From a virus (taxonomy: Duplodnaviria > Caudoviricetes), in IMG/VR virus record IMGVR_UViG_3300009037_000004, positions 32,001 to 96,000 of that record: DNA of 64,000 nucleotides, one strand, 5' to 3'. The notes below the pieces were generated by a model. That model searched no databases. It saw only the letters and a list, made by a program, of their open reading frames with translations, and was not told the origin of the DNA. Each line of letters opens with the position of its first letter. The stretch's first letter is position 1. Position numbers and translations under genes: made by a program. Shown here one piece after another: positions 1 to 23,506 of the stretch.

Positions 1-1
1 C

Positions 2-3001: not shown

Positions 3002-3348
3002 TCATCACCAAAGCCGACTGCCGCATCAACGGACTTCACATCCTGGAGGTCACCATCACTACCCAGCCAGCGCCCGGATACCGGCCGGTCATGGTGGCCT
3101 CCTACGTGAAGGTCGAAGAGCAAGACCTGGGTGACGGACGGAAGGTTCTCAACACCCACGGAAAGTGCACCACGACACCCGTGACTCAGCGGGGCGTGGA
3201 CTGGTCCGAGAACACGAAGAGGCTCCTGGATGAACTACTGGAGTCCATGGAGCAAGATCTTCTACCCCGGCATTTCAAGACTGCCGGACAGGAGGGTTTG
3301 AATGAACGGGATTCGTCTGGAGACTCTGAAGACGCTAGCCAAATTTGA
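2998..3348 (+). CDS. Hypothetical protein
   Basis: ATGA-coupled; fits the operon tiling. Confidence 0.65.
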   Translation: MIITKADCRINGLHILEVTITTQPAPGYRPVMVASYVKVEEQDLGDGRKVLNTHGKCTTTPVTQRGVDWSENTKRLLDELLESMEQDLLPRHFKTAGQEGLNERDSSGDSEDASQI

Positions 3349-4459: not shown

Positions 4460-4468
4460 TTTCCAGCC

Positions 4469-4535
4469 GGTGGGAGGAGGGATTTACCCCTCTTGACGGA
4501 CGCTGTTTGGAGGGGTACGGATCTCTCCTCCCACC
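4469..4535 (+). promoter_or_regulatory. Long imperfect intergenic inverted repeat (about 30-bp hairpin) overlapping a weak TTGACG-N17-TACGGA promoter-like sequence
   Basis: GGTGGGAGGAGGGAT (4469-4483) pairs with ATCTCTCCTCCCACC (4521-4535); TACCCCTC (4485-4492) pairs with GAGGGGTA (4510-4517). Confidence 0.7.
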
Positions 4536-4551
4536 ATCTCAGGAGGAATCA

Positions 4552-4860
4552 ATGCCGTCAAAACCGACGCTGGAAACGCTGGCCAAGCAAGAGCAGAGCC
4601 TGCGGGACAAGATCACTCGTCTGGAGAAAGAACTCCGGGCGCTGAAGGACGTGCTCAACATCCACGACAACTGGAATGCCGAGATTCGAGAATGGATCGG
4701 GAAGCAAGTGAAGGTAAGGACCTCGGTGGATGGGTTCGTCGGAGGGAAGCTTCTCTGGTCTGATCGCTACAACATTTGCCTGGAGATCGCCACCAGTTCT
4801 GCAATGCTACACAAGCGCATTGTCAACAAGGGTCACATCGTCTGGATCGAGCTTACCTAG
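4552..4860 (+). CDS. Coiled-coil plus Sm/Hfq-like (LSm fold) protein
   Basis: AGGAGG RBS; IGKQVKV....G.VGGKLLWSDRYNICL is Sm1-like and IVNKGHIVWI is Sm2-like. Confidence 0.6.
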   Translation: MPSKPTLETLAKQEQSLRDKITRLEKELRALKDVLNIHDNWNAEIREWIGKQVKVRTSVDGFVGGKLLWSDRYNICLEIATSSAMLHKRIVNKGHIVWIELT

Positions 4861-4868
4861 GAGGGTCC

Positions 4869-6353
4869 ATGGCCAACGACGAACTTGTTCTACTCTCAAA
4901 GGTTCTGGAAGAGCAGGACATTCGACCTCTCACGGATGCCAACATCACGCTCAACCACTTCCAGACCGAAGACGGTCAACTGATCTACCGGCGTATCACG
5001 CGGTACTACAAGATGCCCAAGACCGCTGGTCTTGTCCCCTCCCGCGAATACATCGAGAAGAACTTCCCCACGGTCACGCTCCCCAAGCCGCCCAAGAAGA
5101 CGACGCTGAAGGCGCTGGTGGAGGAGTTCCTCCAAACCTATCTCCGTTCAGAGCTCCAGCTCATGGCGGACAGGATCGTGGAATCTCTGGCCAGCTCCGA
5201 TAACCCGGACACCACGCTGGACGAGGTGGGGGAGAAGTACCTGGAGCTATCGGCGAAACGGCGGATTAGCGAAGATCAGATCGTAGCTGACATTGCCAAG
5301 AACATCAAGGAACGCTACGACAGCGCAGCAGCAGGAGGACTCACCGGCATCCCCTACCCTTGGGACCATTTCAACCTGGAAAGCACGGGGTTCAACAACG
5401 GTGAATTTGTGCTCCTCTATGGCCGGCCCAAGTCCATGAAGACCTGGATCCTCCTGGTCTGTGCCTGCCACGCCTACGACTTTGCCAACCGGCGGGTTCT
5501 CATCTGCACAAGAGAGATGAAGCCGGAGGAGATCGCAGACCGCTGCATCTGTCTGCTCATTGAGGCTCCTTACCGAGCCTTCAAGCGCAAGACACTCGAT
5601 CAGATTCCTGTCCCGGAAGGCGGGACGATGTACGATCGATTCGCCCGCTATCTCGACACGATGAAGATAGACGAGAACACCTGCCGAATCGAGATGGGCA
5701 GAGACAAGTCTCTGATCATCACCAGTGACCGAGCTGACCCGAATGGTGGGGGTGTCTCCGGGCTGCGGCAGAAGATTCGGGACCACAGACCAGACGCGCT
5801 GTACGTGGACGGCTTGTACCTCATGCGGCATGAGGGCCGGCGATCTCCCAAGTGGAATGACCAGACAGCCATCGCGCAGGACATCCGAGATCTGGCCCTG
5901 GACGAAAACCTCCCCATCATGGGGACCAACCAGGCAAACCGTGACAGCGAAGATCGCGGTGGCAAGTCTGCCTCCAACATCTCCTATGCGGATGCCTACG
6001 GCCAGTCGTGCACCACCGCAATCGAGATCATGAAGAAGACGACGCCAGACCCCGAGGTGAACGAGCTGGCTCTGGCCATCACGGTCGCCCGGGAGATGAA
6101 CATCACCGGCTTCGCCATCAACGGGAATCCGGCCACTGACTTCGGATGTCTGATGACCAAGCAGCGCAACCTGGAGGGCAATGTGGTCGTAGACGAGGAC
6201 GGGAATCCAGTCTTGACGCCCCTCATCTTCCAGGAGTACTCCGACCTGAAGAACTTCTTCAAGGAGGAGGAAGAGCGTCCTCGTACCAAGTCCAAGATGG
6301 CTGATCATGCTCGGGAAGCCTGGAGGGAGTTGAAAGGGCGGAAAAGCTCGTGA
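4869..6353 (+). CDS. dnaB: Replicative DnaB-like helicase
   Basis: GIPYPW..FN..STG, Walker A GRPKSMKT, TREM, Walker B YVDGLYL, NQANR. Confidence 0.9.
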   Translation: MANDELVLLSKVLEEQDIRPLTDANITLNHFQTEDGQLIYRRITRYYKMPKTAGLVPSREYIEKNFPTVTLPKPPKKTTLKALVEEFLQTYLRSELQLMADRIVESLASSDNPDTTLDEVGEKYLELSAKRRISEDQIVADIAKNIKERYDSAAAGGLTGIPYPWDHFNLESTGFNNGEFVLLYGRPKSMKTWILLVCACHAYDFANRRVLICTREMKPEEIADRCICLLIEAPYRAFKRKTLDQIPVPEGGTMYDRFARYLDTMKIDENTCRIEMGRDKSLIITSDRADPNGGGVSGLRQKIRDHRPDALYVDGLYLMRHEGRRSPKWNDQTAIAQDIRDLALDENLPIMGTNQANRDSEDRGGKSASNISYADAYGQSCTTAIEIMKKTTPDPEVNELALAITVAREMNITGFAINGNPATDFGCLMTKQRNLEGNVVVDEDGNPVLTPLIFQEYSDLKNFFKEEEERPRTKSKMADHAREAWRELKGRKSS

Positions 6354-7342
6354 GGGACACCGTCCTTCGATCGGCCAAGAAATACCTGCGCTTCACCAGG
6401 ATGTCCGGGCCGAACAATGTCGGCGGCCCCTGCCCCTTCCACAAGCAAGGGGAAGAGAAGAAGCCGTCGTTCTACATGAATTTGTCAACAGGGGTCTACT
6501 ACTGCCACGCCTGCGGGGCCAAGGGGACGTTCATCCAATTCCTCCAGAAGATGGGGGCTCCCCGAGACCTGATCGACATGACGCTGGAGGAGGAGAAAAC
6601 CCGCCCTCGCCAGCCCCGCAGAGACGTTCACATCAACGCCGGAAGAGGCGATCACTTCCTGAACGAGTCCATTCTTGGCGTCTTCCAGTACCTTCCAACC
6701 AACTTGGTGAAGGAGGGATTCGACCCAAAACTGCTGAAGAAACTAGAGATTGGATTCGACAAGCACGCAATGCGTATCATCTTCCCAATTCGCGACCTGG
6801 AGGGGAGGCTGGTAGGACTGGCTGGACGCACTGTGTTGGGGGAGGGTGAAAAGTACCGTGTTTACAAGGCGCAGGACATCCTACCGTATGCCCCTGACGA
6901 CCCTGTAGTTCGAGCCAGATACGAGAAATACGACATCAAGAGCCACAACTTCCTGTGGAACGGCCACAACGTCTACCCGTTGGCTTTCTTCGACAAACTT
7001 GATACAGTCGTGGTGGTCGAAGGCTACAAAGCGTGTATCTGGTTGATCCAACACGACATCGACAACGTAGTCGCGCTTCAGGGAAGCCGAATGTCGGGAG
7101 CTCAGGAACGAATCTTCTCCCGGCTAGGCTGCACGATCATTCTGTTCCTCGACAACAACAAAGCAGGGAAGGAGGGAATGCTGGATACCGGCCGGAGGCT
7201 CAGACGAAGGGGTCTTCGGGTCTTGTGTGCGCGATACCCAGACTGGGCGGATGACCACACCCAGCCAGACAACCTTGATCAAGCCAGCCTTTTAGGGGTC
7301 CTTGACGCCGCCGTAGACTGGCACTTTTGGAGGTCAAGATGA
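6350..7342 (+). CDS. dnaG: DNA primase (CHC2 zinc finger plus Toprim)
   Basis: CPFH..EKKPSF...YYCHACG; RIIFPIRD..G.LVG.AGR; VVEGY; FLDNN.AG. Confidence 0.92.
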   Translation: MRDTVLRSAKKYLRFTRMSGPNNVGGPCPFHKQGEEKKPSFYMNLSTGVYYCHACGAKGTFIQFLQKMGAPRDLIDMTLEEEKTRPRQPRRDVHINAGRGDHFLNESILGVFQYLPTNLVKEGFDPKLLKKLEIGFDKHAMRIIFPIRDLEGRLVGLAGRTVLGEGEKYRVYKAQDILPYAPDDPVVRARYEKYDIKSHNFLWNGHNVYPLAFFDKLDTVVVVEGYKACIWLIQHDIDNVVALQGSRMSGAQERIFSRLGCTIILFLDNNKAGKEGMLDTGRRLRRRGLRVLCARYPDWADDHTQPDNLDQASLLGVLDAAVDWHFWRSR

Positions 7343-8472
7343 GCTATTCAGCGAAGAGAAGTTCCTTCGGACAGCGCGTCCAGGGATACAACACGAGGAG
7401 AAGCGAGAGCTCGGGTGGGGGCAGGGGCGGGGGTCTCAGCATCCGGTGGAGACACCGCTGGGCACCGCCTGTGGGGGTCACCACCCAGGCCATCCTCCTC
7501 CCCGGCAACTACCTCAACATGGAAGGAGAGGAGACCGAGTACTTCCCCTACGTCGATCACTTCGCGGCCCGCTCGAACAGGGGCTTCATCTGCTCGAAGA
7601 AGTACCAGATCGTGGACGGGGAACTGACGAGCGTGGGCGGCAAGTGCCTGGGGTGCAAGGAGAGGGAAGGGGGTGCCGATGACATCCGCTGGAGCATGAA
7701 GCACGCCTTCAACGTCCTCCACCTCGCCTGGTACCACAAGGTTCCGGCCGAAGACGAACACGGCCGGCCCATCAAATACACGAAGGGGAAGCGCACGGGC
7801 GAGCAGATCATGAACGATGAGATCTGCGAAGGTCGCCGCTGCCCCCACTGCGCCGCCAAGCTCGACAAGTTCTTCGGCCGCAAGGTCCACTGGAGCATCG
7901 GCTCCGGTCACATGAGCGAACTCGCGGGCATCGTGTCCGAGATCGAGAAGGACTGCAAGAGCTGCGGGGAAGGCCGCCTGGAGACTGTCTCCTACGAGTG
8001 CGACAAGTGTGGCTTCCCGCTCATCGACATGCAGACCACGGAGATGAAGCTGGAGGACATCCTCAGCTTCGTGGCCCGCAAGCGCGAGTGCCCCAAGTGC
8101 GGCAACGTCGCGATCCCCCTCAAGCAGGTGGAGTGTGACCACTGCCAGGACCCCAAGCCGCTGTCGATCTTCGACTGCGAGCTGGAGATCAAGCGCCAGG
8201 GTGAGGGCACCAACTCGACCGTCCAGGTTCCCAGATGGACCGCCATCGACATCATGTCCTACAAGGATAAGGTCGATGACTTCGAGGAGAAGATCAAGCC
8301 GTTCGTCTTCAAGAAGATCTTCTGCTCCGATCCGTTCGACATCCAGGCGAAGATCCTGAAGATCAAGAACCCCTGGGGCTCCGAGAATCCCGATGCGGAC
8401 AAGCACGCGAAGGGGTACGAAGAGGGCGAAGGAGGAGAGGGAGAAGAGGGCGACCCCGACTACAACGAGTAG
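7339..8472 (+). CDS. Putative single-stranded DNA-binding protein with several Zn ribbons and an acidic tail
   Basis: Lies between primase and polymerase; IKRQGEGTNST resembles gp32-like SSBs; six CxxC pairs; C-terminus EEGEGGEGEEGDPDYNE. Confidence 0.6.
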   Translation: MSYSAKRSSFGQRVQGYNTRRSESSGGGRGGGLSIRWRHRWAPPVGVTTQAILLPGNYLNMEGEETEYFPYVDHFAARSNRGFICSKKYQIVDGELTSVGGKCLGCKEREGGADDIRWSMKHAFNVLHLAWYHKVPAEDEHGRPIKYTKGKRTGEQIMNDEICEGRRCPHCAAKLDKFFGRKVHWSIGSGHMSELAGIVSEIEKDCKSCGEGRLETVSYECDKCGFPLIDMQTTEMKLEDILSFVARKRECPKCGNVAIPLKQVECDHCQDPKPLSIFDCELEIKRQGEGTNSTVQVPRWTAIDIMSYKDKVDDFEEKIKPFVFKKIFCSDPFDIQAKILKIKNPWGSENPDADKHAKGYEEGEGGEGEEGDPDYNE

Positions 8473-8478
8473 CCTGAC

Positions 8479-8516
8479 AGACACCCCCTCCTGTGGCGGG
8501 AGGGGGTGTCTCTTTT
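8479..8516 (+). terminator. Intrinsic terminator-like hairpin after the SSB-like gene
   Basis: 13-bp stem AGACACCCCCTCC / GGAGGGGGTGTCT, 7-nt loop, followed by CTTTT. Confidence 0.75.
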
Positions 8517-8527
8517 GTGGAGGACCA

Positions 8528-10510
8528 ATGGGAACCCAGTACGTTCCACCCGTCACCTGGGTGGATGACCCCGAATCGTTCATGCAGTTTGCCCGGCATG
8601 TCCAGGACACTCGGGAGTGCGCGGTGGACACGGAGACCACTGGACTCAATCGTGCCCGGGACCACGTCAAGTTCTGGTCAGCTTGCCCCGACATCAACTC
8701 CCGCTACTGCCTCTCCCGCGATATGCTCGAGCTGTTCGGGCAAGAGCTTGCCTCCGACCTGGACCTCACCTGGTATTTCACCAACCAGAACTTCGACTTC
8801 GCGATGATGGAGAACTCCGGCATCAAGGCGCCCAAGGGAGACTGCTACGATACCCTGGCCATGGACTGGCTGGTGGACGAGAACCGACAGGGCCGTCACG
8901 GTCTAAAAGAGACGGCTCTCGATCACCTCGGTCTGAACATGCGGGAGTTCAAGGAAGCCTTCAAAGGTCGAAAGAAGGGGGAGTCGATCCCAGAACGGCT
9001 TGACCGGGCCATGCGGGAAGACCCGGACTCGGCCAAATCCTACGCGGCCCTGGATGCCTGGGCTACCTTCCGCGTGTACCACTGTCTCAAGGAGAAGCTT
9101 GAGCAGCTCCACAGCATGGACGGCATGTGCCTCTGGGACTACTTCCAGGAGGTGGAGATGCCGTTCACCCGCGTGCTCTACAACTGCTGCCGCCGCGGCG
9201 TCATGGTGGACATCGGCTACCTGACCGAACTCAGCCCGAAGATCGAGGTCGAGATGGTAGCTATCCAGAAGACGATCAACAGGATCGCGGGCAGGGAAGT
9301 TAACATCAGGAGTACCCCACAGCTCCGCGATCTGTTCTTCGACACGCTCGGGTTGAAGCCCATCAAGATGACGACTGGCGGAGACAGTGGGAACAGGCAG
9401 CCCTCCACGGATGAAAGCTGCTTGCAGATCTGGGCAGATCAGGGTGTGGAAGTCGCAGTCTTGATGCTCCAGTACCGCGAGCTGGCCAAGATGAAAGGCA
9501 CCTACGTGGACGGGCTGAGAAAGTGGGTGGACGACGACTACCGGATTCACCCCACGCTCACCCAGCACGTCACGGTCACCGGACGTCTTTCGTCCGTGGA
9601 CCCCAACCTCCAGAACATCCCCCGGCCGGATGGCGACAAGTTCGGCATCCGCACGGCCTTCATACCCAAAGACAAGCACGCCCTCCTGGTGGTGGACTAC
9701 GAGCAGCTCGAGATGCGGCTCATGGCTCACTTCTCCCAGGACCCCAACATGATCGACGTCATCCGCAAAGGCTGGGACATCCACGCCGGGACTGGCTCGC
9801 TCATGTACAACTACGACTACGATGCGATCATCGCCGCCGGCAAGAAGAAGAAATCGAATGCCAAGGCGAAGGAACAGGGCCTGCCCTACACGGAACTGAC
9901 CGAGCTCGAGAAGGGCATGATCTTCGCCAGGCAAGCCGCCAAGACTATCGGCTTCGGATTGAACTACGGCGAGGGGCCCCAGAAGCTGGGCAAGTCGCTG
10001 GGAGTGGGAGTGGAGGAAGCCAAGGCGCTGATCCAGAAGTACTTCGCGCCCTACCCCCGAGTCCGGGAGTTCATCGAGGGCGTCCACAACTACATCCTCG
10101 ACCACGCGATGGTCGAAACCATCCTGGGCCGTCCGCGTCGCTTCCACGAACTCCCCGCCATCGGGGAGCTGCTGGACAAGATGAGTCGGTGGAAGCTCCC
10201 CGGCTCGGCCAGGAAGAACCTCGCCCAAGCAGAACGCCAGAGCGTCAACTCGGTCATCCAGGGTTCTGCGGCAGATGTGGCGAAGATGGCTATGATCAAG
10301 TGCGAGTTCGACCACCGACTTCGGAATCTCGGAGTCGAGATGCTCCTCCAGGTCCACGATGAACTACTCTTCGAAGTCCCGGAAGAGAACGTGGACGAGG
10401 CCAAGAAAATCGTTCTGGAGCTGATGGAACACCCGTTCGGTGACGACCTCCTGGTCCCACTGAATGCGGATGCTGGAGTCGGGTTTTCTTGGGCAACGGC
10501 GAAGGCGTAG
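8528..10510 (+). CDS. polA: DNA polymerase family A (3'-5' exonuclease plus polymerase; no 5'-3' exonuclease)
   Basis: ExoI DTETTG, TGRLSSVDPNLQNIP, motif A DYEQLEMR, motif B RQAAKTIGFGLNYG, motif C QVHDELL; GGAGG RBS before ATG 8528. Confidence 0.97.
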   Translation: MGTQYVPPVTWVDDPESFMQFARHVQDTRECAVDTETTGLNRARDHVKFWSACPDINSRYCLSRDMLELFGQELASDLDLTWYFTNQNFDFAMMENSGIKAPKGDCYDTLAMDWLVDENRQGRHGLKETALDHLGLNMREFKEAFKGRKKGESIPERLDRAMREDPDSAKSYAALDAWATFRVYHCLKEKLEQLHSMDGMCLWDYFQEVEMPFTRVLYNCCRRGVMVDIGYLTELSPKIEVEMVAIQKTINRIAGREVNIRSTPQLRDLFFDTLGLKPIKMTTGGDSGNRQPSTDESCLQIWADQGVEVAVLMLQYRELAKMKGTYVDGLRKWVDDDYRIHPTLTQHVTVTGRLSSVDPNLQNIPRPDGDKFGIRTAFIPKDKHALLVVDYEQLEMRLMAHFSQDPNMIDVIRKGWDIHAGTGSLMYNYDYDAIIAAGKKKKSNAKAKEQGLPYTELTELEKGMIFARQAAKTIGFGLNYGEGPQKLGKSLGVGVEEAKALIQKYFAPYPRVREFIEGVHNYILDHAMVETILGRPRRFHELPAIGELLDKMSRWKLPGSARKNLAQAERQSVNSVIQGSAADVAKMAMIKCEFDHRLRNLGVEMLLQVHDELLFEVPEENVDEAKKIVLELMEHPFGDDLLVPLNADAGVGFSWATAKA

Positions 10511-10513
10511 ACC

Positions 10514-10921
10514 ATGGAATACCAAGAACTAATCGAAGCCGTAGCCGGACAGACCAAGTACACCAAGCGGGAGATCCGCAAGATCATGCGCCTGGTAGCG
10601 AGGACAATCCGGGAAGCTATGGGACGGGGGCGAGACGTCCAGTACCACGGCCTCGGTCGGTTCGTGAACGTGCTGGAAAAGGCACGGAAGGGACGGAACC
10701 GCTACACTGGGGAGGCCATCATCATCCCTCCCCGCCGCCGTGTTCGCTTCCGGCCCAACGAAGTTCTTCGCATCATGGTGGCGCAGTCCCAGGAGGTCTT
10801 CAAGGAACCCGACCTCCGTGAACGATTTGGCCTAAAGAAAGGAGCCAACGATGGAAAAGTACGCAGTGGAGATCGACCCAAAGAAGGTGCCAACGGAAAA
10901 GAAGGCCGGGGCGGGGGATAA
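10514..10921 (+). CDS. HU/IHF-like DNA-binding protein
   Basis: ELIEAVA...GLGRF....KARKGRNRYTGEAIIIPPRRRVRFRP. Confidence 0.92.
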   Translation: MEYQELIEAVAGQTKYTKREIRKIMRLVARTIREAMGRGRDVQYHGLGRFVNVLEKARKGRNRYTGEAIIIPPRRRVRFRPNEVLRIMVAQSQEVFKEPDLRERFGLKKGANDGKVRSGDRPKEGANGKEGRGGG

Positions 10922-11015
10922 GGATCCTCACCCGAACACGAACATACCCCTCGATCCCGATCTCGGAAGTGAACCGTACGAAAGGAGGCCAGACAAGGAT
11001 GGCAAAGAAGGCTGA
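10851..11015 (+). CDS. Small 54-aa protein missed by the ORF track (MEKYAVEIDPKK...GSEPYERRPDKDGKEG)
   Basis: Strong AAAGGAG RBS; bridges HU and RecA with short overlaps. Confidence 0.55.
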   Translation: MEKYAVEIDPKKVPTEKKAGAGDKDPHPNTNIPLDPDLGSEPYERRPDKDGKEG

Positions 11016-12336
11016 GAAGACCGAGAACCGACCCACCCGGTTGCCGAAGATGGACATGGACGACCTCGTGGAGGGCATCACCGCGGAGCTGGGCGGTTAT
11101 GGAGTGGTACTCCAACGCGGTTCGGAGCTGGAAGGGCGCTTCGACCTCCGGCGGCCCTGCGGAATCCCCTCCCTGGACATCGCCACTGGCGGTGGGCTCG
11201 CAGCGGGGGGGCTATCTCAGATCGATGGGCCAGACGGAGCCGGGAAGAACCTGCTGATCTACAACTACTTCGCCCAGGTGCAAAGACTCTACGGGGACTC
11301 CACCAGGATCTTCATGCTCTGCATGGAGTTCCCGTTCGACAAGATGTACGCCCGGAAGATCGGCTTCCGGGTTCCCTTCTCCAACTACGAGCTCGAGGTG
11401 GAGGCACGACGCCGGAGGGAGGCCGGGGAAGAGCCCCTTACAGTACAGGAGTGCCACGAGCTTCAGGACAAGAAGGGGTGCGGTGAGTTTCTGGTTCTGC
11501 GGGGAGCGGCGGAGGGGAACCTAGATGCTCTCGTCCGCATGATCTGGTCCAACGCCTTCCAGATTGGAGCGGTGGACTCCTGGGACTCGATGCTCACCGC
11601 GGCTGAAGATGAGGCCGACTTGGCTGATGACCCCCGCATCGCCAGCTCCTCCTCCGTCCAGACGAAGTGGATGAAGAAGGTGCAGGGGGCAATGGCTCCC
11701 CGGAAGCGGTGCCCGGAGTGCTACGAGCTGGAGATCGAGTTCAAGAAGCACAGTGAGACCAGCTACGGCTACACCTGCAAGAGTTGTGGATGGAAGGGGA
11801 AGCGGCCGTTCCTGGAAGAGAACGAGACCACGATCATCGGTATCCGTCAGGTTCGGGCCAACCTGAACAAGGCCGGGATGCGCTCGAGGGAATGGAAAGT
11901 GGGTGGGGCCTGGGCGCTCAAGCACGGCAAGCTGGTAGACATCCAGCTCCGTCCAGGGGAGATCCTCTACACCAAGGACGGCAAGACCAAGATCGGTAAG
12001 GAAATCAACTGGGAGATCACCAAGGGGAAGGCAGGGACGCACGAGGGGATCACGGGGGCCTTCAAGTACTTCTTCGAGCCACCCGAGATCGACATCGACT
12101 CGGACTTCATCAACTACTGCACCTCGAAGAGCATCATTCGGCGAGGTGGGTCTGTCTACTACGTCGATCATGGTGGTGCCCTTCCCAACGAGGACGACCC
12201 GCTGAAGTTCAGTGGGAAGGACGCGCTGATGGATGCATTCGATGATCCCAAGCTGGGGCTGAAGAACCTTCTGTGGAAGATGATGCTGAAGGACGCCGGT
12301 CTCCAGCATGTCCGCCACAAGGACGTCGAGGGATGA
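10999..12336 (+). CDS. recA: RecA-like recombinase with a zinc-ribbon insertion
   Basis: GIPSLDIATGGGL..G, Walker A GPDGAGKN, Walker B AVDSWD, IRQVR, GGAWALKH, TKGKAG. Confidence 0.9.
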   Translation: MAKKAEKTENRPTRLPKMDMDDLVEGITAELGGYGVVLQRGSELEGRFDLRRPCGIPSLDIATGGGLAAGGLSQIDGPDGAGKNLLIYNYFAQVQRLYGDSTRIFMLCMEFPFDKMYARKIGFRVPFSNYELEVEARRRREAGEEPLTVQECHELQDKKGCGEFLVLRGAAEGNLDALVRMIWSNAFQIGAVDSWDSMLTAAEDEADLADDPRIASSSSVQTKWMKKVQGAMAPRKRCPECYELEIEFKKHSETSYGYTCKSCGWKGKRPFLEENETTIIGIRQVRANLNKAGMRSREWKVGGAWALKHGKLVDIQLRPGEILYTKDGKTKIGKEINWEITKGKAGTHEGITGAFKYFFEPPEIDIDSDFINYCTSKSIIRRGGSVYYVDHGGALPNEDDPLKFSGKDALMDAFDDPKLGLKNLLWKMMLKDAGLQHVRHKDVEG

Positions 12337-12860
12337 AGGTTGAGCTGGTAATCAGATACCTGGGATTCGGAAGGCAGTGCTCGGGATGCGGCAGAGTCAG
12401 AGAGACGACCAGATACCAGATCCGCGACCAGGCGGAGCACATCCTACAGGAGTTCCTGCTCTGCGATGGCTGTCAGGACAACGGGTACGTGGTCGAGTTC
12501 GAGCCCGCCCGCTCCTCCTCTCCTGTCACCAAGCAGGAGAGGAGGCGGCGGATCAAGATCTCCCAGAAGCTGGAGAAGGGGCTAGCCCTGGACATTGGCG
12601 GCCACACCCAGCCTGGCTCTGGAAACCAGGACGCGAAAGACGACGTACGAAAGATCGACGAGTGGCGAGTTGAGCACAAATACACGGAAAGTACGAAAGG
12701 CTTCCGGTTGCTCGTGGATCAGCTCGCGGCTGTCGTTCGGCATGCGAACATTGCGGGCGAGTGGCCGGCACTCGTCATCACCTTCAGGCGACTTGGCCGA
12801 AAGTTCGCCGTCATCCCTTATGAACTCTTCATCGAGATCGCGAGGAAAACACATGGCTGA
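12333..12860 (+). CDS. Zn-finger plus PD-(D/E)XK nuclease (phage Holliday-junction resolvase-like)
   Basis: CSGC..CDGC; SQKLEK.LA..IGG.TQPGSG...KDDV...VEHKYT. Confidence 0.7.
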   Translation: MKVELVIRYLGFGRQCSGCGRVRETTRYQIRDQAEHILQEFLLCDGCQDNGYVVEFEPARSSSPVTKQERRRRIKISQKLEKGLALDIGGHTQPGSGNQDAKDDVRKIDEWRVEHKYTESTKGFRLLVDQLAAVVRHANIAGEWPALVITFRRLGRKFAVIPYELFIEIARKTHG

Positions 12861-13734
12861 GACTCTTCTGACCATCGAGGACGCCAAGCGGCACCTCGGC
12901 CCGGGCGGTAAGATCAAGGATCTCGTCCGGCACATCTCCGTGGTTTCACGGATCGATGCATTTCTGGAAGACCTGAATGTGGAACCACCAGCTCCACTGA
13001 AGGTCTCCTTCGATCTCAACTCCATCCGGCATGGAAGCATCTTCCATCCGTCAAGCATCGGAAGCACCTCGGGAAAGTCCCTCGATGGGAAGTACTCCAT
13101 CGGGTGTGCCCGGCTCCTCTACTACGACTACATCGGAGCGGAACAAACTGGGGCCATCGAACCCAGACTCCGAAGGATCTTCGACACCGGCTCTGCAATC
13201 CATGCCCAACTCCAGGCGTACCTGGGGGAGATTGTCAGAAGAAGTGAGGGCGTCGAGGAGTTCACGCCCGAAGCGTTCTTCCACCCGGGCAACAACAAGG
13301 CCGCCGACTCCTACGACATCGCGGGGAGTACGGACGGCATCTACGTCATGCATGAGCCTGCCAACATCCGCTTCGGTGTGGAGATCAAGTCGATCAACGA
13401 TGCGGGATATCAGAAGACCACGAACCCACACGCTGAGCACCTCATGCAGGGCACCGTCTACCAGCACTGCCTCGACCTCCCGGCGATGCTGTTCGTCTAC
13501 TACAACAAGAACGACTCCAGCATGGCCGAGTTCGTCCAGGTCTACGATGAACGGCGCTGGGATGCCATCGCCAAGAAGCTCGACCGCGTGCGAGAGATGG
13601 CCCTCAAGGAGGAGGAGCCGGAGCGCGAGGACGGCTGGCACTGCATGACCTGCAAGTACAAGGCGATCTGCAATCCGCCCAAGAAGAGCAAGAACGAGGG
13701 CGCCAAGATGTTCAACACGAGCAGGAGGCGCTGA
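12853..13734 (+). CDS. Cas4-like / RecB-family PD-(D/E)XK exonuclease
   Basis: FHPSSI..C.R..YY, FDTGSAIH, GSTDG, EIKS, Q..VY, and terminal C..C.YK..C giving a 4-Cys Fe-S pattern. Confidence 0.85.
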   Translation: MAETLLTIEDAKRHLGPGGKIKDLVRHISVVSRIDAFLEDLNVEPPAPLKVSFDLNSIRHGSIFHPSSIGSTSGKSLDGKYSIGCARLLYYDYIGAEQTGAIEPRLRRIFDTGSAIHAQLQAYLGEIVRRSEGVEEFTPEAFFHPGNNKAADSYDIAGSTDGIYVMHEPANIRFGVEIKSINDAGYQKTTNPHAEHLMQGTVYQHCLDLPAMLFVYYNKNDSSMAEFVQVYDERRWDAIAKKLDRVREMALKEEEPEREDGWHCMTCKYKAICNPPKKSKNEGAKMFNTSRRR

Positions 13735-14372
13735 TGCCGAATCCCTTTGAAGTCACGCTGGACCGGGCCATCGAGATCTACGATGAAGCCGGGGACCAAG
13801 CTGAAGCGGATGTGATCAAGATGGGACTACCACTTGCAGTCCGACCGATAAGACGGGATGGAACGCTGGCGGACTCCCCCCAGCCTCCCATCGACCTCAG
13901 CGAGGCGAGATACGCCGAACTCACTACCCTGATCGGGCAGTTCACCGCCTGGTACTCCTACGCCATCAGCCAACTGAAGATTGCGGAGGGGGAGAGGAAC
14001 AGGGCTCAGAAGAAGCGGGACGTTGCCTGGTCACACATCCGGCAGAAGAAGGACGGAACAGTGTCGGACAAGGACGATGCAGCTAGGCTAGACAAGCGGT
14101 TCTTGGACGTGGACGCCCACTACGAGTACTGCGACAGCAAGGTCCGACACCTCACTGCCATCACGGAAGGCTACAAGCGTGAGATCGAAACCGTCTCCAG
14201 GGCCTTCTCCGCCCTTGACGGGAAGGCCAACGTGGAGGGACGTGGAGCCACCTTCGCCAGGAAGCGGTCGGCAGAGGTAGCTGGGGACGCATTCAAAACG
14301 TCCCGGAGATCTGAGCAACCTCACGAATCGAAACGGTCCGCACTGGACGTGTTCAAGAAGGGACGACGATGA
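13734..14372 (+). CDS. Helical protein, possibly a UvsY-like recombination mediator
   Basis: Coiled-coil pattern (GTVSDKD.AA..D..F) and position within the recombination cluster. Confidence 0.45.
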   Translation: MPNPFEVTLDRAIEIYDEAGDQAEADVIKMGLPLAVRPIRRDGTLADSPQPPIDLSEARYAELTTLIGQFTAWYSYAISQLKIAEGERNRAQKKRDVAWSHIRQKKDGTVSDKDDAARLDKRFLDVDAHYEYCDSKVRHLTAITEGYKREIETVSRAFSALDGKANVEGRGATFARKRSAEVAGDAFKTSRRSEQPHESKRSALDVFKKGRR

Positions 14373-14911
14373 TCTTCAGGGTTTGGATTCCACGGCTGCC
14401 CCCTTCTTCGAACAACATCTACATCCGCCACCCGGCGGGCAAGGGAAGAGTCCTGAGCCCACAGGCCAGGACGTTCAAGCTCAAGGCGATGCAGGCGATC
14501 CAAGACGGAGCGAAGGTGGCCCTCCTGAAGCTGGAGAAGAACGTCCCGTACGAGCTCCACCTGGCGGTGTTCTTCGAACAGGTGGAAAACAAAGCATCGA
14601 CCAAGGGCAATCGCTACAAGCAGATGGACCTGAGCAACCGGATCAAGCTGATCGAAGATACGGTTGCATCAGCCATCGGGCTTGATGACTGCCACAACTT
14701 TCGCACGTCGCAGGAGAAACACTGCGACCCAGAACACCCAGGTCTCTACGTCACGCTCAGTCGGGTCCCGGAGGCCGAGGTGGGAATGACAAAGGAGGCT
14801 TATGATCGAGTACGATTACAACAACCTGAACGAGACCGAGCTAGTCGAGCTGGCGCGACATCACGGCTGTTGGGTAGGTCACCGTGGGTTAGGAAGGGAG
14901 CTTCTCATTAA
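14369..14911 (+). CDS. rusA: RusA-like Holliday junction resolvase
   Basis: PPSSNNIY; DLSNRIKLIED...IGLDD matches the RusA DxxNxxKxxxD...DD pattern. Confidence 0.8.
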   Translation: MIFRVWIPRLPPSSNNIYIRHPAGKGRVLSPQARTFKLKAMQAIQDGAKVALLKLEKNVPYELHLAVFFEQVENKASTKGNRYKQMDLSNRIKLIEDTVASAIGLDDCHNFRTSQEKHCDPEHPGLYVTLSRVPEAEVGMTKEAYDRVRLQQPERDRASRAGATSRLLGRSPWVRKGASH

Positions 14912-15137
14912 GATCATCGAGGGAAAAGTCGATCCCGGTGACTGTCCAGCAGACCCCGTGGATGACGAGAGGAACGCGATGATGTTGATGAAGGAGACCT
15001 GGAAGGATGTCTACCATCAGCTCAAGTGTGCAGACCAGTTCTATGCTTGCTGGGATTGTCCACCCGCTAGAGCCAGGGCTTGCGCGGTGGACGAGTGCGA
15101 GAAAGACCTCCTGGAGAAGGTGAAGGACGGGGGATGA
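14802..15137 (+). CDS. Hypothetical Cys-rich protein
   Basis: AAGGAGG RBS; C..C..C..C cluster near the C-terminus. Confidence 0.7.
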   Translation: MIEYDYNNLNETELVELARHHGCWVGHRGLGRELLIKIIEGKVDPGDCPADPVDDERNAMMLMKETWKDVYHQLKCADQFYACWDCPPARARACAVDECEKDLLEKVKDGG

Positions 15138-15364
15138 GGAAAAGCTGCGTGACCTGCAAGCATCTTTCGAGCTGTGAGGAGGTGTCGGCACCCAGGCTAA
15201 ACGAGGGGTATTCCTGCTCTGTTTGGACTCTGGCTGAAGAAGAGGAACGAAAGGCACGAGACTCGATCATTAGGGAGTTTGGACCATCGGCGCTGCGGTT
15301 CGCACTTCCACAATCCCAAGTCAGCGCCAACGCAAGAGCACGGAGACGAAGGAAACATGTCTGA
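15134..15364 (+). CDS. Small Cys-rich hypothetical protein
   Basis: ATGA-coupled; CVTCKH...C...C. Confidence 0.6.
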   Translation: MRKSCVTCKHLSSCEEVSAPRLNEGYSCSVWTLAEEEERKARDSIIREFGPSALRFALPQSQVSANARARRRRKHV

Positions 15365-15923
15365 GAAACTCACGAAGGAAGACCTGGATGGTATGAGCCG
15401 AGTCCAACTCCGCCGCGCGGCCATGGAAGTGTTGGGCATGGGCAACAAGGAAGCGACCGAGATGAACAGCGCGGACCTCAAGGCCAAGATCCTGGAGGCC
15501 CAGGAAGGCGGGGGAAAGAAGAAGGGTAAGGCCGCGCCGCCCCCGGAGGAGCCGAAGAAGGGCAGGGGCAAGCCCGCCCCGGAACCCGAGCCGGAAGAAG
15601 AACCCGAGCCGGAGCCCGAAGAGGAGGCTCCGCCCCCGAAGGGCAAGGTCGCTGCGTCGTCCGAAACCAGGACGCTGACTGAGATCTTGAAGGTCGTCCA
15701 TGCGGTCGGGAAGGCCGTGGACGAGCTCGCCCAGACCGTGGCGGAACGCCTGGACACGCAGGACGAGCACCTGGTCGAGATCGAGCGGAAACTCTTCCAC
15801 CAGCTCGGACTCACCGAGAACATCTTCAAGGGTGTGAGCGAGCCGGACGAGTTCGAGCCCAGGATCGAGGCGCTGGAGGACGAGTGGAAGAAGCAGGCGG
15901 AGGGCGAGGAGGGAAACGACTAG
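15357..15923 (+). CDS. Protein with a Rho-N/SAP-like helical N-domain, Pro/Glu linker and coiled coil
   Basis: LDGMSRVQLRRAA..LG...ADLKAKIL; PEPEPEEE linker; ends at the slippery site G GGA AAC GAC TAG. Confidence 0.75.
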   Translation: MSEKLTKEDLDGMSRVQLRRAAMEVLGMGNKEATEMNSADLKAKILEAQEGGGKKKGKAAPPPEEPKKGRGKPAPEPEPEEEPEPEPEEEAPPPKGKVAASSETRTLTEILKVVHAVGKAVDELAQTVAERLDTQDEHLVEIERKLFHQLGLTENIFKGVSEPDEFEPRIEALEDEWKKQAEGEEGND

Positions 15924-16114
15924 CAGGGGGCTCTACCCTGGGTCCCCGCCCAGCTCGTCCGGATGAGACCGTGAACGTGACCGAAGCCTACCTGGCCGAC
16001 CTGACCTTGGACAGCCTCCGGCTGCTAGCTGTCCAGCTCGTTGTGGACATCGACCCGGCCGCCATCGAGGATCGCGAGGAGCTACTCCAGCTCCTCCGAT
16101 CCAACTCCCTCTAG
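15911..16114 (+). other. Putative -1 programmed ribosomal frameshift extension of 15357..15923
   Basis: Heptamer GGGAAAC (15911-15917) in X XXY YYZ phase; 8-bp hairpin at 15926-15947; -1 frame open to TAG 16114, which abuts a terminator. Confidence 0.7.
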
Positions 16115-16131
16115 CCCCTTCGGGGGCTTTT
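16113..16131 (+). terminator. Intrinsic terminator ending the replication operon
   Basis: AGCCCC-TTCG-GGGGCT-TTT with a cUUCGg tetraloop. Confidence 0.85.
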
Positions 16132-16159
16132 CTTAACCTGCAAACGGATCATCCATGCC

Positions 16160-16280: not shown

Positions 16281-16586
16281 ATGCTCAAGATCGATCTCTC
16301 GGTGACCCCGAGCAACCCGCTGTACGCGGGCCTTGGGGTCACGGAGGTCGGTGGGCGGGCGAACCTCCCCAACGCGACCAGTGCCGAGGTGATCAACACC
16401 ATTGGCAAGGTCGTGAAGGGGATGGTTGACGCACTGCCCGTGGGCGAGCGTGACGAGGTGGTTCTGACCGGGCCCGCGCCGGTCCAGATCTACCTCGTTG
16501 CGTTTCACGGGGTGGTCCACTGCTTCCGGTCCGTCCGCTACCAGGATGGCCGGGGTGGTGACTGCCTCGTGTCGCAACACGGGTAG
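16281..16586 (+). CDS. Csx3/Crn3-like small protein (ring-nuclease-like candidate)
   Basis: VVLTGPAPVQIY...FH..VH....V.YQD.R.G..LVSQH resembles the Csx3 pattern; GGAGG RBS. Confidence 0.55.
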   Translation: MLKIDLSVTPSNPLYAGLGVTEVGGRANLPNATSAEVINTIGKVVKGMVDALPVGERDEVVLTGPAPVQIYLVAFHGVVHCFRSVRYQDGRGGDCLVSQHG

Positions 16587-19245: not shown

Positions 19246-22200
19246 CTATACACTCCGGTTGAGATCGTCGATCGGTGCGAGTGCGGTGGTGTTGTAATTC
19301 GTAGACACCGGCATGACACCAACGCCGTGGATGAAGGCGCCCGTAGATAGAACGACGTTTCCCACCGCCATGGAATAGTTGGCGCCGGCGTTGCTGAGCG
19401 TGATCTGAAGACCTGTCGGATCTCCCGCCAGGAATCCGGCGAGATTCCCCACCGCCACGCAGTTGTTCCCATCCATTCGGATAGCGCCGTAAGTTGCAGC
19501 ACCGCCCAGGTAGAAACCCGTCACGAGGTTGCCGGAGGCCATAACTTTCGAAATAGAACCCGCATAGATGCCCCAAGCAACATCCTGCGAGCCACTACCC
19601 GTCCAGTAGATCTGGTTTCCTAGAATCTGGGTGTACTCACCGCTGGCTCCCACGAAGATTCCATAGGCGCATGATCCCATCGTGGAGGAGACATCATTGT
19701 AGATCTTGTTCCCCTGGATCAAGCAGGCGGCATGGGCAGCGATGAAGTAGTTGTTGATGCCGCTGGATGCGAATTCGTAGTTGTAGCACTCCTTGAGCAC
19801 GTTATTAACGATCGACGCGCGTGCGTTTGCTCGGATGTGGTAGTAATGCTGGACCTCGAGATCCCCACACGCATCCAGGATGTTCCCATCGACCACCGAA
19901 TCATCTGCACCCGTGTTCACAAGGATAGAGTAGTGTGCTGCCGCGCCCGCTATCCTGCCGTTCACGTGAAGAGCGTTGTGATGGGCAACAGAACCTGTAC
20001 CTGACATGCTGATCCCAGCATTTGTCCCAGAAAGCTTGTTCCGGCCAACAATCGTACGCTCGCCGCTGACGTAGATTTCCCAGCCATAAGCCGAGGCGTC
20101 GTCCGTGCAGGTGTTGCCGTCGATCAAGAGATCGGCGGCAGAGGCCGTCCCCATCACGCCGTAGGTCGTGTAGTTGGTGATCGTGTTGCCGGTGACTTTA
20201 CAGTCAGCAGCGTCAATCTCCACGCCTATCCCGAAGTTCGTCCCGCCAGTCGCCCCATCGATGTAGTTATCCTTCACGTGCGAGTAGGCGGAGAGAACCT
20301 CGACTACGATGCCGGTCGCATCCGAACCACCGTCCGAGTAAAGGTGGTTGCCCTGAATGAGAGCTGCCCCAGCCGCCGCAGTCACCAAGACCGCGCGGGA
20401 ACTCGTGCCGGTGTGACCAGTGACGTTGTTCTCTCGAATCTTGGTGATCGAATCATCCGCCACCCAGATCCCGTAGAGGCCGGAGTTATTCAGGATCGAG
20501 TTCTTCTCGATCAAAGCGTACCGAGCACGCTTGACGAAGATGCCTGTTCCCGTGGCAACCAGGACGCCATCGACCGTGTTGCCGGAGATCTTAAATGAAC
20601 TACCGTCCAGCGTATTGGTGGGATCGTTGTCCACCCACACTCCGATACGGACAGTCTCGGCGTAGTTGTCCTGGAAGGCGACCATAGCCGTCTTCGGTAT
20701 CGCCACGGTCGCCTGGATGCTACAGCCCACCCCATACTGCATGTCCTTGATCTTGTTGTCTTTGACCGTAGCCGAACAGACCACCTCGATCGTATTCGTC
20801 TGGACCAGAACGCCAGATCCATCTAGGAGGCTGTTTCCCGTTCCCGTGATGTCGTTCCCGATAGCCCTACCACGATGGCCGATCCTGATGCCGCTCTTGT
20901 AGAGATTGCCCGAAGACGAAACCGTGCACTTCTCCACCAGATTCCCGTCCCCAGCAACGTCGAACGCGAATGCCGTGGAAGCAGAAGGGTAGTTGTTCTT
21001 CGCCACGCACAGGCGGAAGACGGAATCCATGAGGAAATTGTACGCAGGGAGGGTCACAAGACCCGACGCACACACAAACCTCGTGGAGACCTCAGCGTAG
21101 CACTGATCCACAACCACGCGGTAGTTGTTGGTCGTGTCCCAGAAGAACATGTTGGCGAAACTGTTGGCGGAGACGTGTGACCAGACCTGGCACCCCCGAA
21201 TCACGCTGTACGTGCCGAGGTTGTAGAACAGTGCCTTGTCCACGTCTTGCGTGGCCGCGCCATTGTCCCACTTGAAATTGATGTTGTAGACCTCCACCTT
21301 CGGGGTGGTCGTAGTCCCGTCAAAGGTATTGATGCTCGACCCATGGGACACGAGAACCGTGGGTTGTCCTTCCCCGATCAACACCAAACCGTGCGGAAGA
21401 ACCAGACTACCCGTGACCGAAGTCTGTCCTCGCACGCGGATGACAGCGGGACGATGCGCCCCAACTGTCGTCAGACGAAGGGCTGATACGAGATCAAACG
21501 CCGTGGCCAGATCGGCGAAATCGCATCCTGGGAGGAGATCACCATTCGTGTCCGCCCCCACCGCGATCTCGAGCGCATCCGCACGCTTGTTCATCACCCA
21601 GCGAGCATCGTACTTGATCGTGAAGACGCCGCCAGCGTGGCTGTAGACGGCCAAGATCGCATCGGTGGGGACAACGTCAGCGATCTGACGTTGCTGTGTC
21701 GCTCCCGCTACATCCACGACCAGCACCCTCGTCCCAGCTCCGGTTGGGGCCGTGACATTTCCTGAAGGCAGATTCCGACGATCCCCGTTGTGCATCAAGA
21801 CAGACGTTGGCCAAGCCACCGCCGCAGTGCCATCTGTGAAGGTGATCGGGGTGCCCACATCGAGGAAGCGGTTGCCCCCGATACCCACCAGGGATGCCCG
21901 ATGGCTGTTGAGCGACCCAACCAGGCTGGGCCAGATACCCTCTACGCCAGTGATCCCAGTCTCACTCAGAGAAACCGGTGAGCTAAGGAACTGGTCTTTG
22001 AGGGTCAGTGTCGTATCACCTTGGAGCTGGAGCTCTTGCTGAGAACGAACCAGCAGATCGGCTGCGGCTTCTCCCCGAGCCTCGTTGAGGTTGAGCAGCT
22101 TGTGCCCATCCCAGTCCGCATCCCCCGTCATCTTCTTGGAGCCGTCCTGTAGGAAAGCCCCCGCCTCTACTTCTCCAGCGGCCTGAACTTTGAAGCGGGT

Positions 22201-22794
22201 GAAAGCGTCCGTCGTGAGCCCCTCCAAGCTGCCCCGCTCCCCGTAGAGGATTCTGACGTCCGTGCCGAGGGGGATCGTGTAGGGGTCTGCGACAATCGCG
22301 CCGGTACTTGGGTGGACGGTACAGAAATAGACCCAGGGGTCAGTCACGAAGCCGGTTTTGTAGACGTCCGTGACTTCGGTCGTCTCTCGAACGCGCCGGA
22401 TACGGACCTCATTGTCCGAGCCATCCGTGAGCTCGTTGTACTGATCATCCAAGACCGAGAAGAGCATGAAGAGACCTTCCATATCGGAAGTCCCCGCCAC
22501 GCCCGGGTAGGTCGCATCCCCAGTAAAGACGTCGGCCGTGAAGTGGTACTTCTGCTGGCCAGTGCTGGTGAACGCGACTCCAGCAGGAAGCGACCGATCT
22601 GCGGCCATCTTCTGGTAGAGGTAGTCGATGTTCGCGGAGAGCGCCCAATGCGCCCGATTCGCAATCATCGAGGTCCCCTCTTCCCCGAACCCGATGAACT
22701 TCCCCCCAGTTGAGCCCGGAGTGAAGCCGGTGTCGTAAGAAGCGTTGTTCGCGATCTCACCAGCAGCATTGCCATGAGGGTACGGAAGCGTCAT
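19246..22794 (-). CDS. Tailspike / receptor-binding protein with a right-handed parallel beta-helix
   Basis: 1182 aa; many GI.V......I.GN.I rungs in the C-terminal half; LVLIGEG entry motif. Confidence 0.85.
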   Translation of the reverse strand: MTLPYPHGNAAGEIANNASYDTGFTPGSTGGKFIGFGEEGTSMIANRAHWALSANIDYLYQKMAADRSLPAGVAFTSTGQQKYHFTADVFTGDATYPGVAGTSDMEGLFMLFSVLDDQYNELTDGSDNEVRIRRVRETTEVTDVYKTGFVTDPWVYFCTVHPSTGAIVADPYTIPLGTDVRILYGERGSLEGLTTDAFTRFKVQAAGEVEAGAFLQDGSKKMTGDADWDGHKLLNLNEARGEAAADLLVRSQQELQLQGDTTLTLKDQFLSSPVSLSETGITGVEGIWPSLVGSLNSHRASLVGIGGNRFLDVGTPITFTDGTAAVAWPTSVLMHNGDRRNLPSGNVTAPTGAGTRVLVVDVAGATQQRQIADVVPTDAILAVYSHAGGVFTIKYDARWVMNKRADALEIAVGADTNGDLLPGCDFADLATAFDLVSALRLTTVGAHRPAVIRVRGQTSVTGSLVLPHGLVLIGEGQPTVLVSHGSSINTFDGTTTTPKVEVYNINFKWDNGAATQDVDKALFYNLGTYSVIRGCQVWSHVSANSFANMFFWDTTNNYRVVVDQCYAEVSTRFVCASGLVTLPAYNFLMDSVFRLCVAKNNYPSASTAFAFDVAGDGNLVEKCTVSSSGNLYKSGIRIGHRGRAIGNDITGTGNSLLDGSGVLVQTNTIEVVCSATVKDNKIKDMQYGVGCSIQATVAIPKTAMVAFQDNYAETVRIGVWVDNDPTNTLDGSSFKISGNTVDGVLVATGTGIFVKRARYALIEKNSILNNSGLYGIWVADDSITKIRENNVTGHTGTSSRAVLVTAAAGAALIQGNHLYSDGGSDATGIVVEVLSAYSHVKDNYIDGATGGTNFGIGVEIDAADCKVTGNTITNYTTYGVMGTASAADLLIDGNTCTDDASAYGWEIYVSGERTIVGRNKLSGTNAGISMSGTGSVAHHNALHVNGRIAGAAAHYSILVNTGADDSVVDGNILDACGDLEVQHYYHIRANARASIVNNVLKECYNYEFASSGINNYFIAAHAACLIQGNKIYNDVSSTMGSCAYGIFVGASGEYTQILGNQIYWTGSGSQDVAWGIYAGSISKVMASGNLVTGFYLGGAATYGAIRMDGNNCVAVGNLAGFLAGDPTGLQITLSNAGANYSMAVGNVVLSTGAFIHGVGVMPVSTNYNTTALAPIDDLNRSV

Positions 22795-22804
22795 TTCATC
22801 TCCC

Positions 22805-23506
22805 TCAGAACTGGATTTCCCAGTAGACCTCGAAGGCCACGGAGACCGTCTTCGAGATGGTGTCGAAGGTATTGTAAGCGATGAGCCGTTGACGGGTCGA
22901 GTAGTTGATGTGCGCTGGGTGAGCCCCCACGCTGTAGTCGTAAACCTCCTCCGAGGTCCGGCTCGCTTGCTGATTGCTGAGCATCAGCCCGATCTCGGAC
23001 AGTGGTACGGAAGGATACGATCCCGAGAGATTGATGTCGGTGTAGTTGAACAGACAGGTGTAGGTCACCTTCGTGATCGGCACGCCGCCGAAGGTCGGGG
23101 GCGCCGTGACGCTGTTCATCCAAACACCCGCTGAAGAACCCACTCCGGCTGTCCCCGTCACCTTCACCGGCCGCTCGAGGTATGGCGTCGTCAAAACGGT
23201 GTCATCGAACGTGTTCTGGCCAGGGTAGTGGGCATCGAGGGTTGGATAGGTCCCGGCGATGTCACTGACCAACTGGGAATCCCCTCCGATCCCCAGCGCC
23301 ATGTACCGCACGACTCGAATGGGCGAATCGTTGTAGTGCGCGGCAAAGCTGGAGTCCAGGGGGGAGATCACTTCGGGCAGATACTGCCGGCCGAGGTTGA
23401 CCCAGATGTTATGCCCTTCGCGGCAAAGCCCAGGAACCTTCTTCCCGCGATCGTCTCGAGCGACGATCTTCACGTTGGTTTTGACGTCAATGATGTCCCT
23501 GAACAT
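22805..23506 (-). CDS. Baseplate / tail-fibre attachment protein
   Basis: HNIWVNLG, YMALGIGG, LSEIGL, AYNTF.TISKT...EVYW.I.F pattern; position beside the tailspike. Confidence 0.6.
   Translation of the reverse strand: MFRDIIDVKTNVKIVARDDRGKKVPGLCREGHNIWVNLGRQYLPEVISPLDSSFAAHYNDSPIRVVRYMALGIGGDSQLVSDIAGTYPTLDAHYPGQNTFDDTVLTTPYLERPVKVTGTAGVGSSAGVWMNSVTAPPTFGGVPITKVTYTCLFNYTDINLSGSYPSVPLSEIGLMLSNQQASRTSEEVYDYSVGAHPAHINYSTRQRLIAYNTFDTISKTVSVAFEVYWEIQF

Follow-up and report, generated by a model that had tools for sequence, protein, structure and literature searches.

Results

Organization of the locus

The window analysed here is a 64,000-nucleotide stretch, bases 32001–96000, of a 137,433-base IMG/VR virus record that is estimated to be 75% complete. 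Bases 1–16131 of the window carry DNA-metabolism genes on the + strand, among them those for a family A DNA polymerase (PolA; 8393–10510, +), a UvsX/RecA-like recombinase (10969–12336, +), a Cas4-like PD-(D/E)XK nuclease (12595–13734, +) and RusA (14369–14911, +). The last gene of this replication/recombination block, located after RusA, encodes a 188-aa protein, P0001 (15357–15923, +; ATG at 15357, TAG at 15921–15923). It is followed by an intrinsic terminator (16113–16138, +), which consists of a stem at 16113–16128 and a T-run. The structural (late) genes occupy the − strand from 16646 onward and are convergent to the replication block. Synteny is conserved in relatives, in which the gene also sits after RecA-like, nuclease and RusA genes. 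An initial annotation, made from the sequence alone, had described P0001 as the product of a non-tail gene in a replication operon, and both its neighbours in the window and the conserved synteny agree with that description. When the gene was examined as a possible tail chaperone, it was found not to lie beside a tape-measure gene and had no chaperone match in Pfam or PHROGs.

An AlphaFold2 model of P0001, built from 56 sequences, has a mean pLDDT of 84. Residues 7–49 (15375–15503, +) are modelled as an N-terminal helix-extended-helix (HeH; Rho-N/SAP-like) domain of four helices with pLDDT values of about 95. Residues 50–102 (15504–15662, +) form a low-complexity linker, rich first in Gly/Lys and then in Pro/Glu, which is predicted to be disordered (pLDDT 57–73, no secondary structure); the sole Pfam match of P0001 is a compositional one to this linker. 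The remainder of the model is a long, coiled-coil-like helical hairpin spanning residues 103–181 (15663–15899, +; helices 103–160 and 163–181, pLDDT 89–98). A structure search with the helical part returned generic coiled coils only, and the ESM Atlas offered no usable lead for it (scores ≤0.80). Judging from the model, the helical hairpin is probably the oligomerisation or partner-binding part of the protein.

A candidate −1 frameshift cassette

The gene ends with GAG GGA AAC GAC TAG. This sequence contains the slippery heptamer G GGA AAC in X XXY YYZ phase (15911–15917, +), one codon (3 nt) before the 0-frame stop (TAG, 15921–15923, +), and the stop itself lies inside the spacer between the heptamer and a putative stimulatory hairpin at 15926–15947 (+). 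The hairpin starts after an 8-nt spacer and has an 8-bp stem, with arms at 15926–15933 and 15940–15947 and two of the eight pairs G-U, closed by a 6-nt loop. Beyond the heptamer, the −1 frame continues for 65 codons and a TAG (15917–16114, +). This extension begins with a Gly/Pro-rich flexible linker (15917–15982, +; pLDDT <50), the RNA of which also encodes the hairpin, and goes on to a predicted second Rho-N/SAP-like (HeH) domain (extension residues 25–67; 15983–16111, +). Its stop codon, at 16112–16114, overlaps the stem of the terminator, and a terminator likewise overlaps the extension stop in a related locus, L001. The predicted transframe product would have 187 + 65 = 252 aa, with the junction ...EEGN|RLAGG. 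The initial annotation had reported an in-phase G GGA AAC near the gene end, an 8-bp stem beginning 8 nt downstream, and a −1 frame that stays open for about 65 codons and ends at the terminator; each of these features was found as described, and all of its coordinates proved correct against the sequence.

Both strands of the window were scanned for in-phase canonical heptamers located no more than 12 codons before a stop and followed by at least 40 open −1 codons. The scan returned the site at 15911–15917 and two others, both of which are in spurious overlapping frames. Since a single site of this kind is only moderately beyond chance, and since the window contains possible −1 starts, the case for frameshifting rests on conservation in relatives.

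Further heptamers were noted in the window. One, G GGA AAG, the heptamer of lambda G/GT, lies in phase within the P0001 gene itself, at 15512–15518, in the Gly/Lys run that follows the N-terminal domain. Ribosomes shifting by −1 at this position would terminate after 5 codons and release the N-terminal domain alone, but the heptamer is present in no relative and is therefore probably due to chance. On the − strand, G GGA AAT at 22815–22821 is in phase with a 110-aa frame (22791–23123) and leads into a 1182-aa gene (19246–22794); it is probably spurious, because the 110-aa frame overlaps a likelier 233-aa gene (22805–23506) in another frame. A tail-chaperone frameshift with the same heptamer, sought in the window as an internal control, was not found among the canonical heptamers.

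Conservation of the predicted slip site in relatives

Relatives were chosen by the main protein only, at 26–80% identity, and their DNA was fetched wherever obtainable. A word-indexed metagenome search with the 188-aa protein gave ten homologues at 26–55% identity, and a HMMER profile search gave 123 cluster representatives; at 50% identity, the family comprises no fewer than about 120 clusters. When the region and three family members were searched against 50,697 deposited phage genomes, at both the DNA and the protein level, there were no hits.

An identical, in-phase GGGAAAC is present in 13/13 loci in which the extension and the gene end are both on the contig (the window, L001, L004, L005, L006, L008–L013, L015 and L021), and in these loci it lies 0–15 nt ahead of the 0-frame stop. 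The −1 frame beyond it is open in all 14 loci compared, so that the retention of heptamer and open frame in homologues, which the initial annotation had put forward as a check on its proposal, is borne out. The codon ahead of the heptamer varies between GAG, CAG and TCG (Glu, Gln or Ser), with a third base that is always G. The Gly codon of the heptamer is GGA in 12/12 loci, as against 9% of the other Gly codons in these genes; at two other invariant Gly columns, GGA is used in 0/12 and 1/12 loci. The fixed GGA and the preceding G point to selection on nucleotides and not on amino acids alone.

At the protein level, a C-terminal Gly-Asn occurs within the last eight residues of 43 of the best 57 family representatives and Gly-Lys in 5 more, so that 48 of these 57 (about 85%) have a GN or GK end, compared with a background of 1.4%. 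For one Gly-Lys member, L019, the DNA was checked, and it reads G GGA AAA, a variant that is also in phase. The site of L020 departs further from the consensus: it reads CAG GGG GAA TAG (3620–3660), that is, G GGG GAA, which is not a canonical heptamer. Even with this altered site, the extension is retained in L020, still in the −1 relation, and a 9-bp hairpin follows after 5 nt. Its G GGG GAA could represent a variant at which shifting takes place on a run of G; Glu-tRNA might be able to re-pair with GGA there, or the P-site tRNA might slip by itself along the G run.

A distant, AT-rich member of the family, L022 (27% identity; 3001–3530), has neither heptamer nor extension, and a strong terminator directly follows its stop codon. 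The terminal Gly-Asn codons are thus tied to the presence of the extension, and L022 shows the extension to be an accessory module.

The frame break recurs at the same heptamer in more than 13 independent assemblies from various samples and sources (ENA, JGI, Logan, IMG/VR). This bears on whether the break could be an assembly or sequencing error, or the mark of a decaying gene, the true gene being a single open frame. Single-base errors do happen near runs of G and A, and nothing more specific speaks for such an origin. Recurrence of the same break in many independent assemblies excludes an assembly error, both parts of the gene are under purifying selection (see below), and we find this explanation hardly credible.

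RNA structure downstream of the heptamer

In the window, the 40 nt located 3′ of the heptamer rank above 97% of equally long segments taken from the 3 kb on either side when compared for stability. Of 12 loci ranked in this way, 11 have the corresponding 40 nt among the most stable 0–6% of local windows and the remaining one at 14%, and stability combined across loci gives a Fisher p of 3e-10 when the loci are treated as independent. A MAFFT/RNAalifold consensus of the downstream RNA yielded no structure, as the stems share neither sequence nor position, and folding was therefore carried out locus by locus. Per-locus folding predicts a GC-rich hairpin in 15/15 loci, its core starting 4–9 nt past the slip site, with stems of 6–15 bp and free energies of −11 to −29 kcal/mol. 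Although stem sequences differ between loci, compensatory changes are seen inside subgroups: at the fourth pair, L005 has G-C and L008 has A-U; at the fifth, L006, L010 and L011 have C-G and L009 has G-C. The hairpin arms also encode a Gly...Gly-Pro linker, and GC pairing could consequently stem in part from coding. An Rfam search returned nothing credible, and no pseudoknot was seen when one was looked for by eye. An upstream SD stimulator of the dnaX type was considered as well and rejected; purine-rich Glu codons give SD-like strings throughout, and their spacing is not conserved.

Coding status and initiation of the extension

Over the extension in the window, there are no stops in the −1 frame, 5 in the 0 frame and 1 in the +1 frame. 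In 14/14 loci the −1 frame is without a stop over 64–74 codons, while the 0 frame contains 2–7 stops and the +1 frame 0–3. Substitutions are concentrated at third codon positions, and Nei-Gojobori dN/dS values are 0.06–0.4 for the domain and 0.3–0.8 for the Gly/Pro linker that precedes it. These patterns indicate that the extension frame is coding and under purifying selection. The linker (20–28 codons) is variable and differs in length among loci, yet it is always open and in frame with the heptamer, and whatever the linker length, the domain keeps its −1 relation to the gene.

The extension could in principle be a separate gene of 47–76 aa, initiated at one of the possible starts in the −1 frame of the window, GTG 15884, 15971 or 15977, in which case the heptamer would merely represent conserved Gly-Asn codons. 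GTG 15884 has a GGAGG 4 nt upstream, some start codon lies near the beginning of the domain in most loci, and public gene callers report products of 45–79 aa from this frame. The callers are, however, inconsistent: they begin at the upstream GTG, which gives 68–79-aa "proteins", or at internal starts, or they leave the frame uncalled, and in L001 the stretch was left empty. The upstream GTG found in most loci arises where conserved Glu and Trp codons meet (GAG TGG), and L001 and L012 have a stop in the −1 frame, just ahead of the heptamer, that cuts it off from the extension. These two loci have no ATG, GTG or TTG before the domain, L009 likewise has no start before the first helix of the domain, and the starts that do exist elsewhere are at no conserved position. 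Because L001 and L012 lack any possible start, independent initiation cannot be the mechanism shared by the family. The initial annotation had stated that the downstream frame has no convincing start of its own; this does not hold for the window taken alone, given its three GTG codons, but it is upheld by the relatives that lack such starts. A separate gene would also leave unexplained the exclusive use of GGA with its preceding G, the constant −1 relation, the always-open linker and a hairpin at the spacing expected for frameshifting. Independent starts would account for the window on its own, where a share of initiation at the GTG codons is conceivable; taking both sides together, we regard a separate gene as improbable.

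Termination followed by reinitiation at a non-canonical codon has also been weighed, as has transcriptional slippage, with the hairpin serving mRNA stability or coupling. In every locus the 0-frame stop falls 0–15 nt past the heptamer, just before or inside the hairpin, an arrangement resembling that of coupled gene pairs. Reinitiation, though, provides no reason for a fixed −1 frame or an identical heptamer, and transcriptional slippage is known on long homopolymer runs (PMC5009743), whereas the site here is only G3A3. Under either mechanism, a linker that is open and in frame between the stop and the domain in 14/14 loci would be hard to account for, and we judge both to be very unlikely.

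Programmed −1 ribosomal frameshifting at GGGAAAC, adding a second Rho-N/SAP-type domain to P0001, is in our assessment the very likely explanation. The sequence elements associated with a canonical −1 frameshift cassette, namely the heptamer, a predicted 3′ structure and a −1 ORF that appears to depend on the upstream ORF for its initiation, are all present at the locus, with the GTG codons of the window as possible starts.

A second domain of the N-terminal kind

The initial annotation had proposed that the extension echoes the N-terminal domain of P0001. The extension was modelled with AlphaFold from 27 sequences (pLDDT 67) as a disordered linker followed by helices at residues 25–30, 33–43 and 55–66. 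When the models were compared with 48,161 PDB chains, both gave Rho (1a62_A) as the top match, the N-terminal domain aligning with its residues 1–47 (Z 7.3, rmsd 2.5 over 47) and the extension with its residues 1–43 (Z 5.6, rmsd 1.4 over 43). SAP and LEM domains come next in both lists of matches. Foldseek aligned the N-terminal domain with 9ff7_A at an rmsd of 1.4 over 44, and matches in BFVD include viral proteins named Rho_N or SAP. In a profile-profile comparison, the best match of the extension was the N-terminal domain (residues 4–46), in register but weak (P 0.002, probability 13%), and an HMM of the extension matched the N-terminal domain of many family members, also in register. The echo is thus recovered by structure and by profile, and the shared Rho match together with the profile and HMM matches suggests that the frameshift would add a second domain of the N-terminal kind.

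Neither P0001 nor 12 extension sequences matched Rho_N (PF07498) or SAP in Pfam at E ≤ 0.1 to 1. Since these thresholds were not reached, we assign the domains to a fold and not to the Rho_N/SAP family. As predicted models of a small domain, both are consistent with the helix-extended-helix fold shared by the Rho N-terminal bundle, SAP and LEM, and their Z scores are moderate, as expected for a domain of 45 residues. We infer from the fold that they bind DNA or RNA.

In-frame fusions of the two parts were also sought. Scans of IMG/VR with a single protein and with wide alignments, and one scan of species genomes, found no fused forms, and the extension, used as the query in a weak search for longer proteins fused in frame, retrieved none. 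When the extension HMM was run against 133 family proteins, it found no in-frame C-terminal copy, only unrelated tandem-repeat HeH proteins. Two proteins, P0077 (355 aa) and P0125 (282 aa), are built of Rho-N/HeH-like repeats, three or four in tandem, with acidic linkers between them; the HeH domain alone accounts for their match to the family profile. Multivalent HeH proteins can thus also be encoded in one frame.

Discussion

Proposed mechanism

Our data lead us to propose the following sequence of events. Most ribosomes would read to the TAG at 15921 and produce the 188-aa protein, in which a disordered linker joins the Rho-N/SAP-like domain at the N-terminus to the long helical hairpin. 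The RNA hairpin 8 nt downstream would pause a fraction of ribosomes while GGA is occupied by Gly-tRNA and AAC by Asn-tRNA, and tandem slippage by one base would shift pairing from GGA AAC back to GGG AAA. The shifted ribosomes would then read CGA and 64 further codons to generate the 252-aa protein, in which a second domain of the same fold is carried on a flexible Gly/Pro linker. That slippage occurs at all is inferred from these signals. AAC in the A site is reported to be less slippery than AAG with E. coli ribosomes, which may not be the host's ribosomes here; many eukaryotic viruses nonetheless rely on it, as does the G/GT pair of a haloarchaeal virus (PMC5009743).

If the helical part oligomerises, the rate of frameshifting would set the ratio of subunits with a single nucleic-acid-binding head to those with two. 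Because of the fold, the architecture and the conserved position after RecA-like, nuclease and RusA genes, we tentatively suggest, as a possibility about which we remain doubtful, that such a ratio is set in a coiled-coil oligomer acting with the UvsX-like recombinase, the Cas4-like nuclease and RusA; the oligomer might, for instance, bridge or organise DNA during recombination-dependent replication. Were this the case, P0001 would be a phage counterpart of the tau/gamma logic of dnaX, in which recoding controls stoichiometry in a DNA-metabolism machine, and it would be conserved across a large uncultured phage lineage.

Comparison with known recoding systems

Among the closest parallels in organization are the lambda G/GT tail chaperone, with the heptamer G GGA AAG, and the equivalent genes of tailed phages and haloarchaeal viruses. 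In these systems, too, an X XXY YYZ site lies near the end of a short ORF with the 0-frame stop a few nt later, a single message gives rise to a short and a C-terminally extended product, and the arrangement is conserved over diverged phages while sequences drift. The G/GT counterpart of HCTV-1 uses G GGA AAC, the heptamer found here (PMC5009743). In contrast to lambda G/GT, the P0001 gene is not beside the tape-measure gene and lies on the opposite strand from the structural genes, and its extension repeats a domain already present at the N-terminus.

Frameshift extensions are also known in capsid genes, including gene 10 of T3 and T7 and genes of Lactobacillus phage A2 and Listeria phages A118, A500 and PSA (PMC5009743). 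As at the P0001 locus, the shift takes place near the 3′ end and places a small accessory domain on a fraction of copies, with stem-loops or pseudoknots as stimulators. The capsid products, however, are virion proteins and the added parts are mostly Ig-like, whereas P0001 belongs to a non-structural module and its extension is an HeH-type domain. Bacterial dnaX (tau/gamma) resembles P0001 in its replication context, a shared N-terminal part with different C-terminal domains, and a ratio set by recoding, and in some bacteria the dnaX layout is reversed so that the long form needs the frameshift (PMC5009743). It differs in having no homology to P0001, in using A AAA AAG with an upstream SD-like stimulator, and in that its function is known.

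Nearly all annotated examples of programmed frameshifts in tailed phages come from tail-chaperone genes and from a small number of capsid genes. In the PRFect set, derived from 3,679 SEA-PHAGES genomes, 2,397 of 2,476 joined genes are tail chaperones (PMC10885494), and a review of recoding and the PRFect paper list tail-chaperone, capsid and a few other phage cases (PMC5009743, PMC10885494). The P0001 family is non-structural, and our literature search found no published description of the family or of its frameshift. What is new is the gene family and the context in which it is found; the proposed mechanism itself is a canonical one. Public calls split the gene or miss its second part, and the present analysis corrects the annotation of the family. 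With natural controls in the form of relatives without a possible start, one without the extension and one with an altered slip site, the family makes a good test set for frameshift predictors. The family also draws attention to a protein in which the dosage of nucleic-acid-binding-type domains evidently makes a difference to these phages.

Neighbouring genes

Several small genes were observed around the P0001 gene. In related phages, genes with a precomputed Pfam match to Acb5 (PF26761) are located a few kb downstream of the frameshift gene (L001, 7796–7972; L003, 3805–3963; L008, 4454–4666), and an InPase (PF18823) gene is a neighbour in L008 and L020. In the window, the gap that separates the terminator of the P0001 gene from the late genes facing it contains a stand-alone 101-aa ORF (16281–16586), for which Pfam and PHROG searches gave no match at E ≤ 0.1. 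A gene directly convergent to that of P0001 (16646–17161, −) encodes a 171-aa protein with an N-terminal signal-like segment and a C-terminal membrane helix, possibly a spanin-like lysis protein, and L001, L003, L011 and L020 have an ORF of about 172 aa at the equivalent place.
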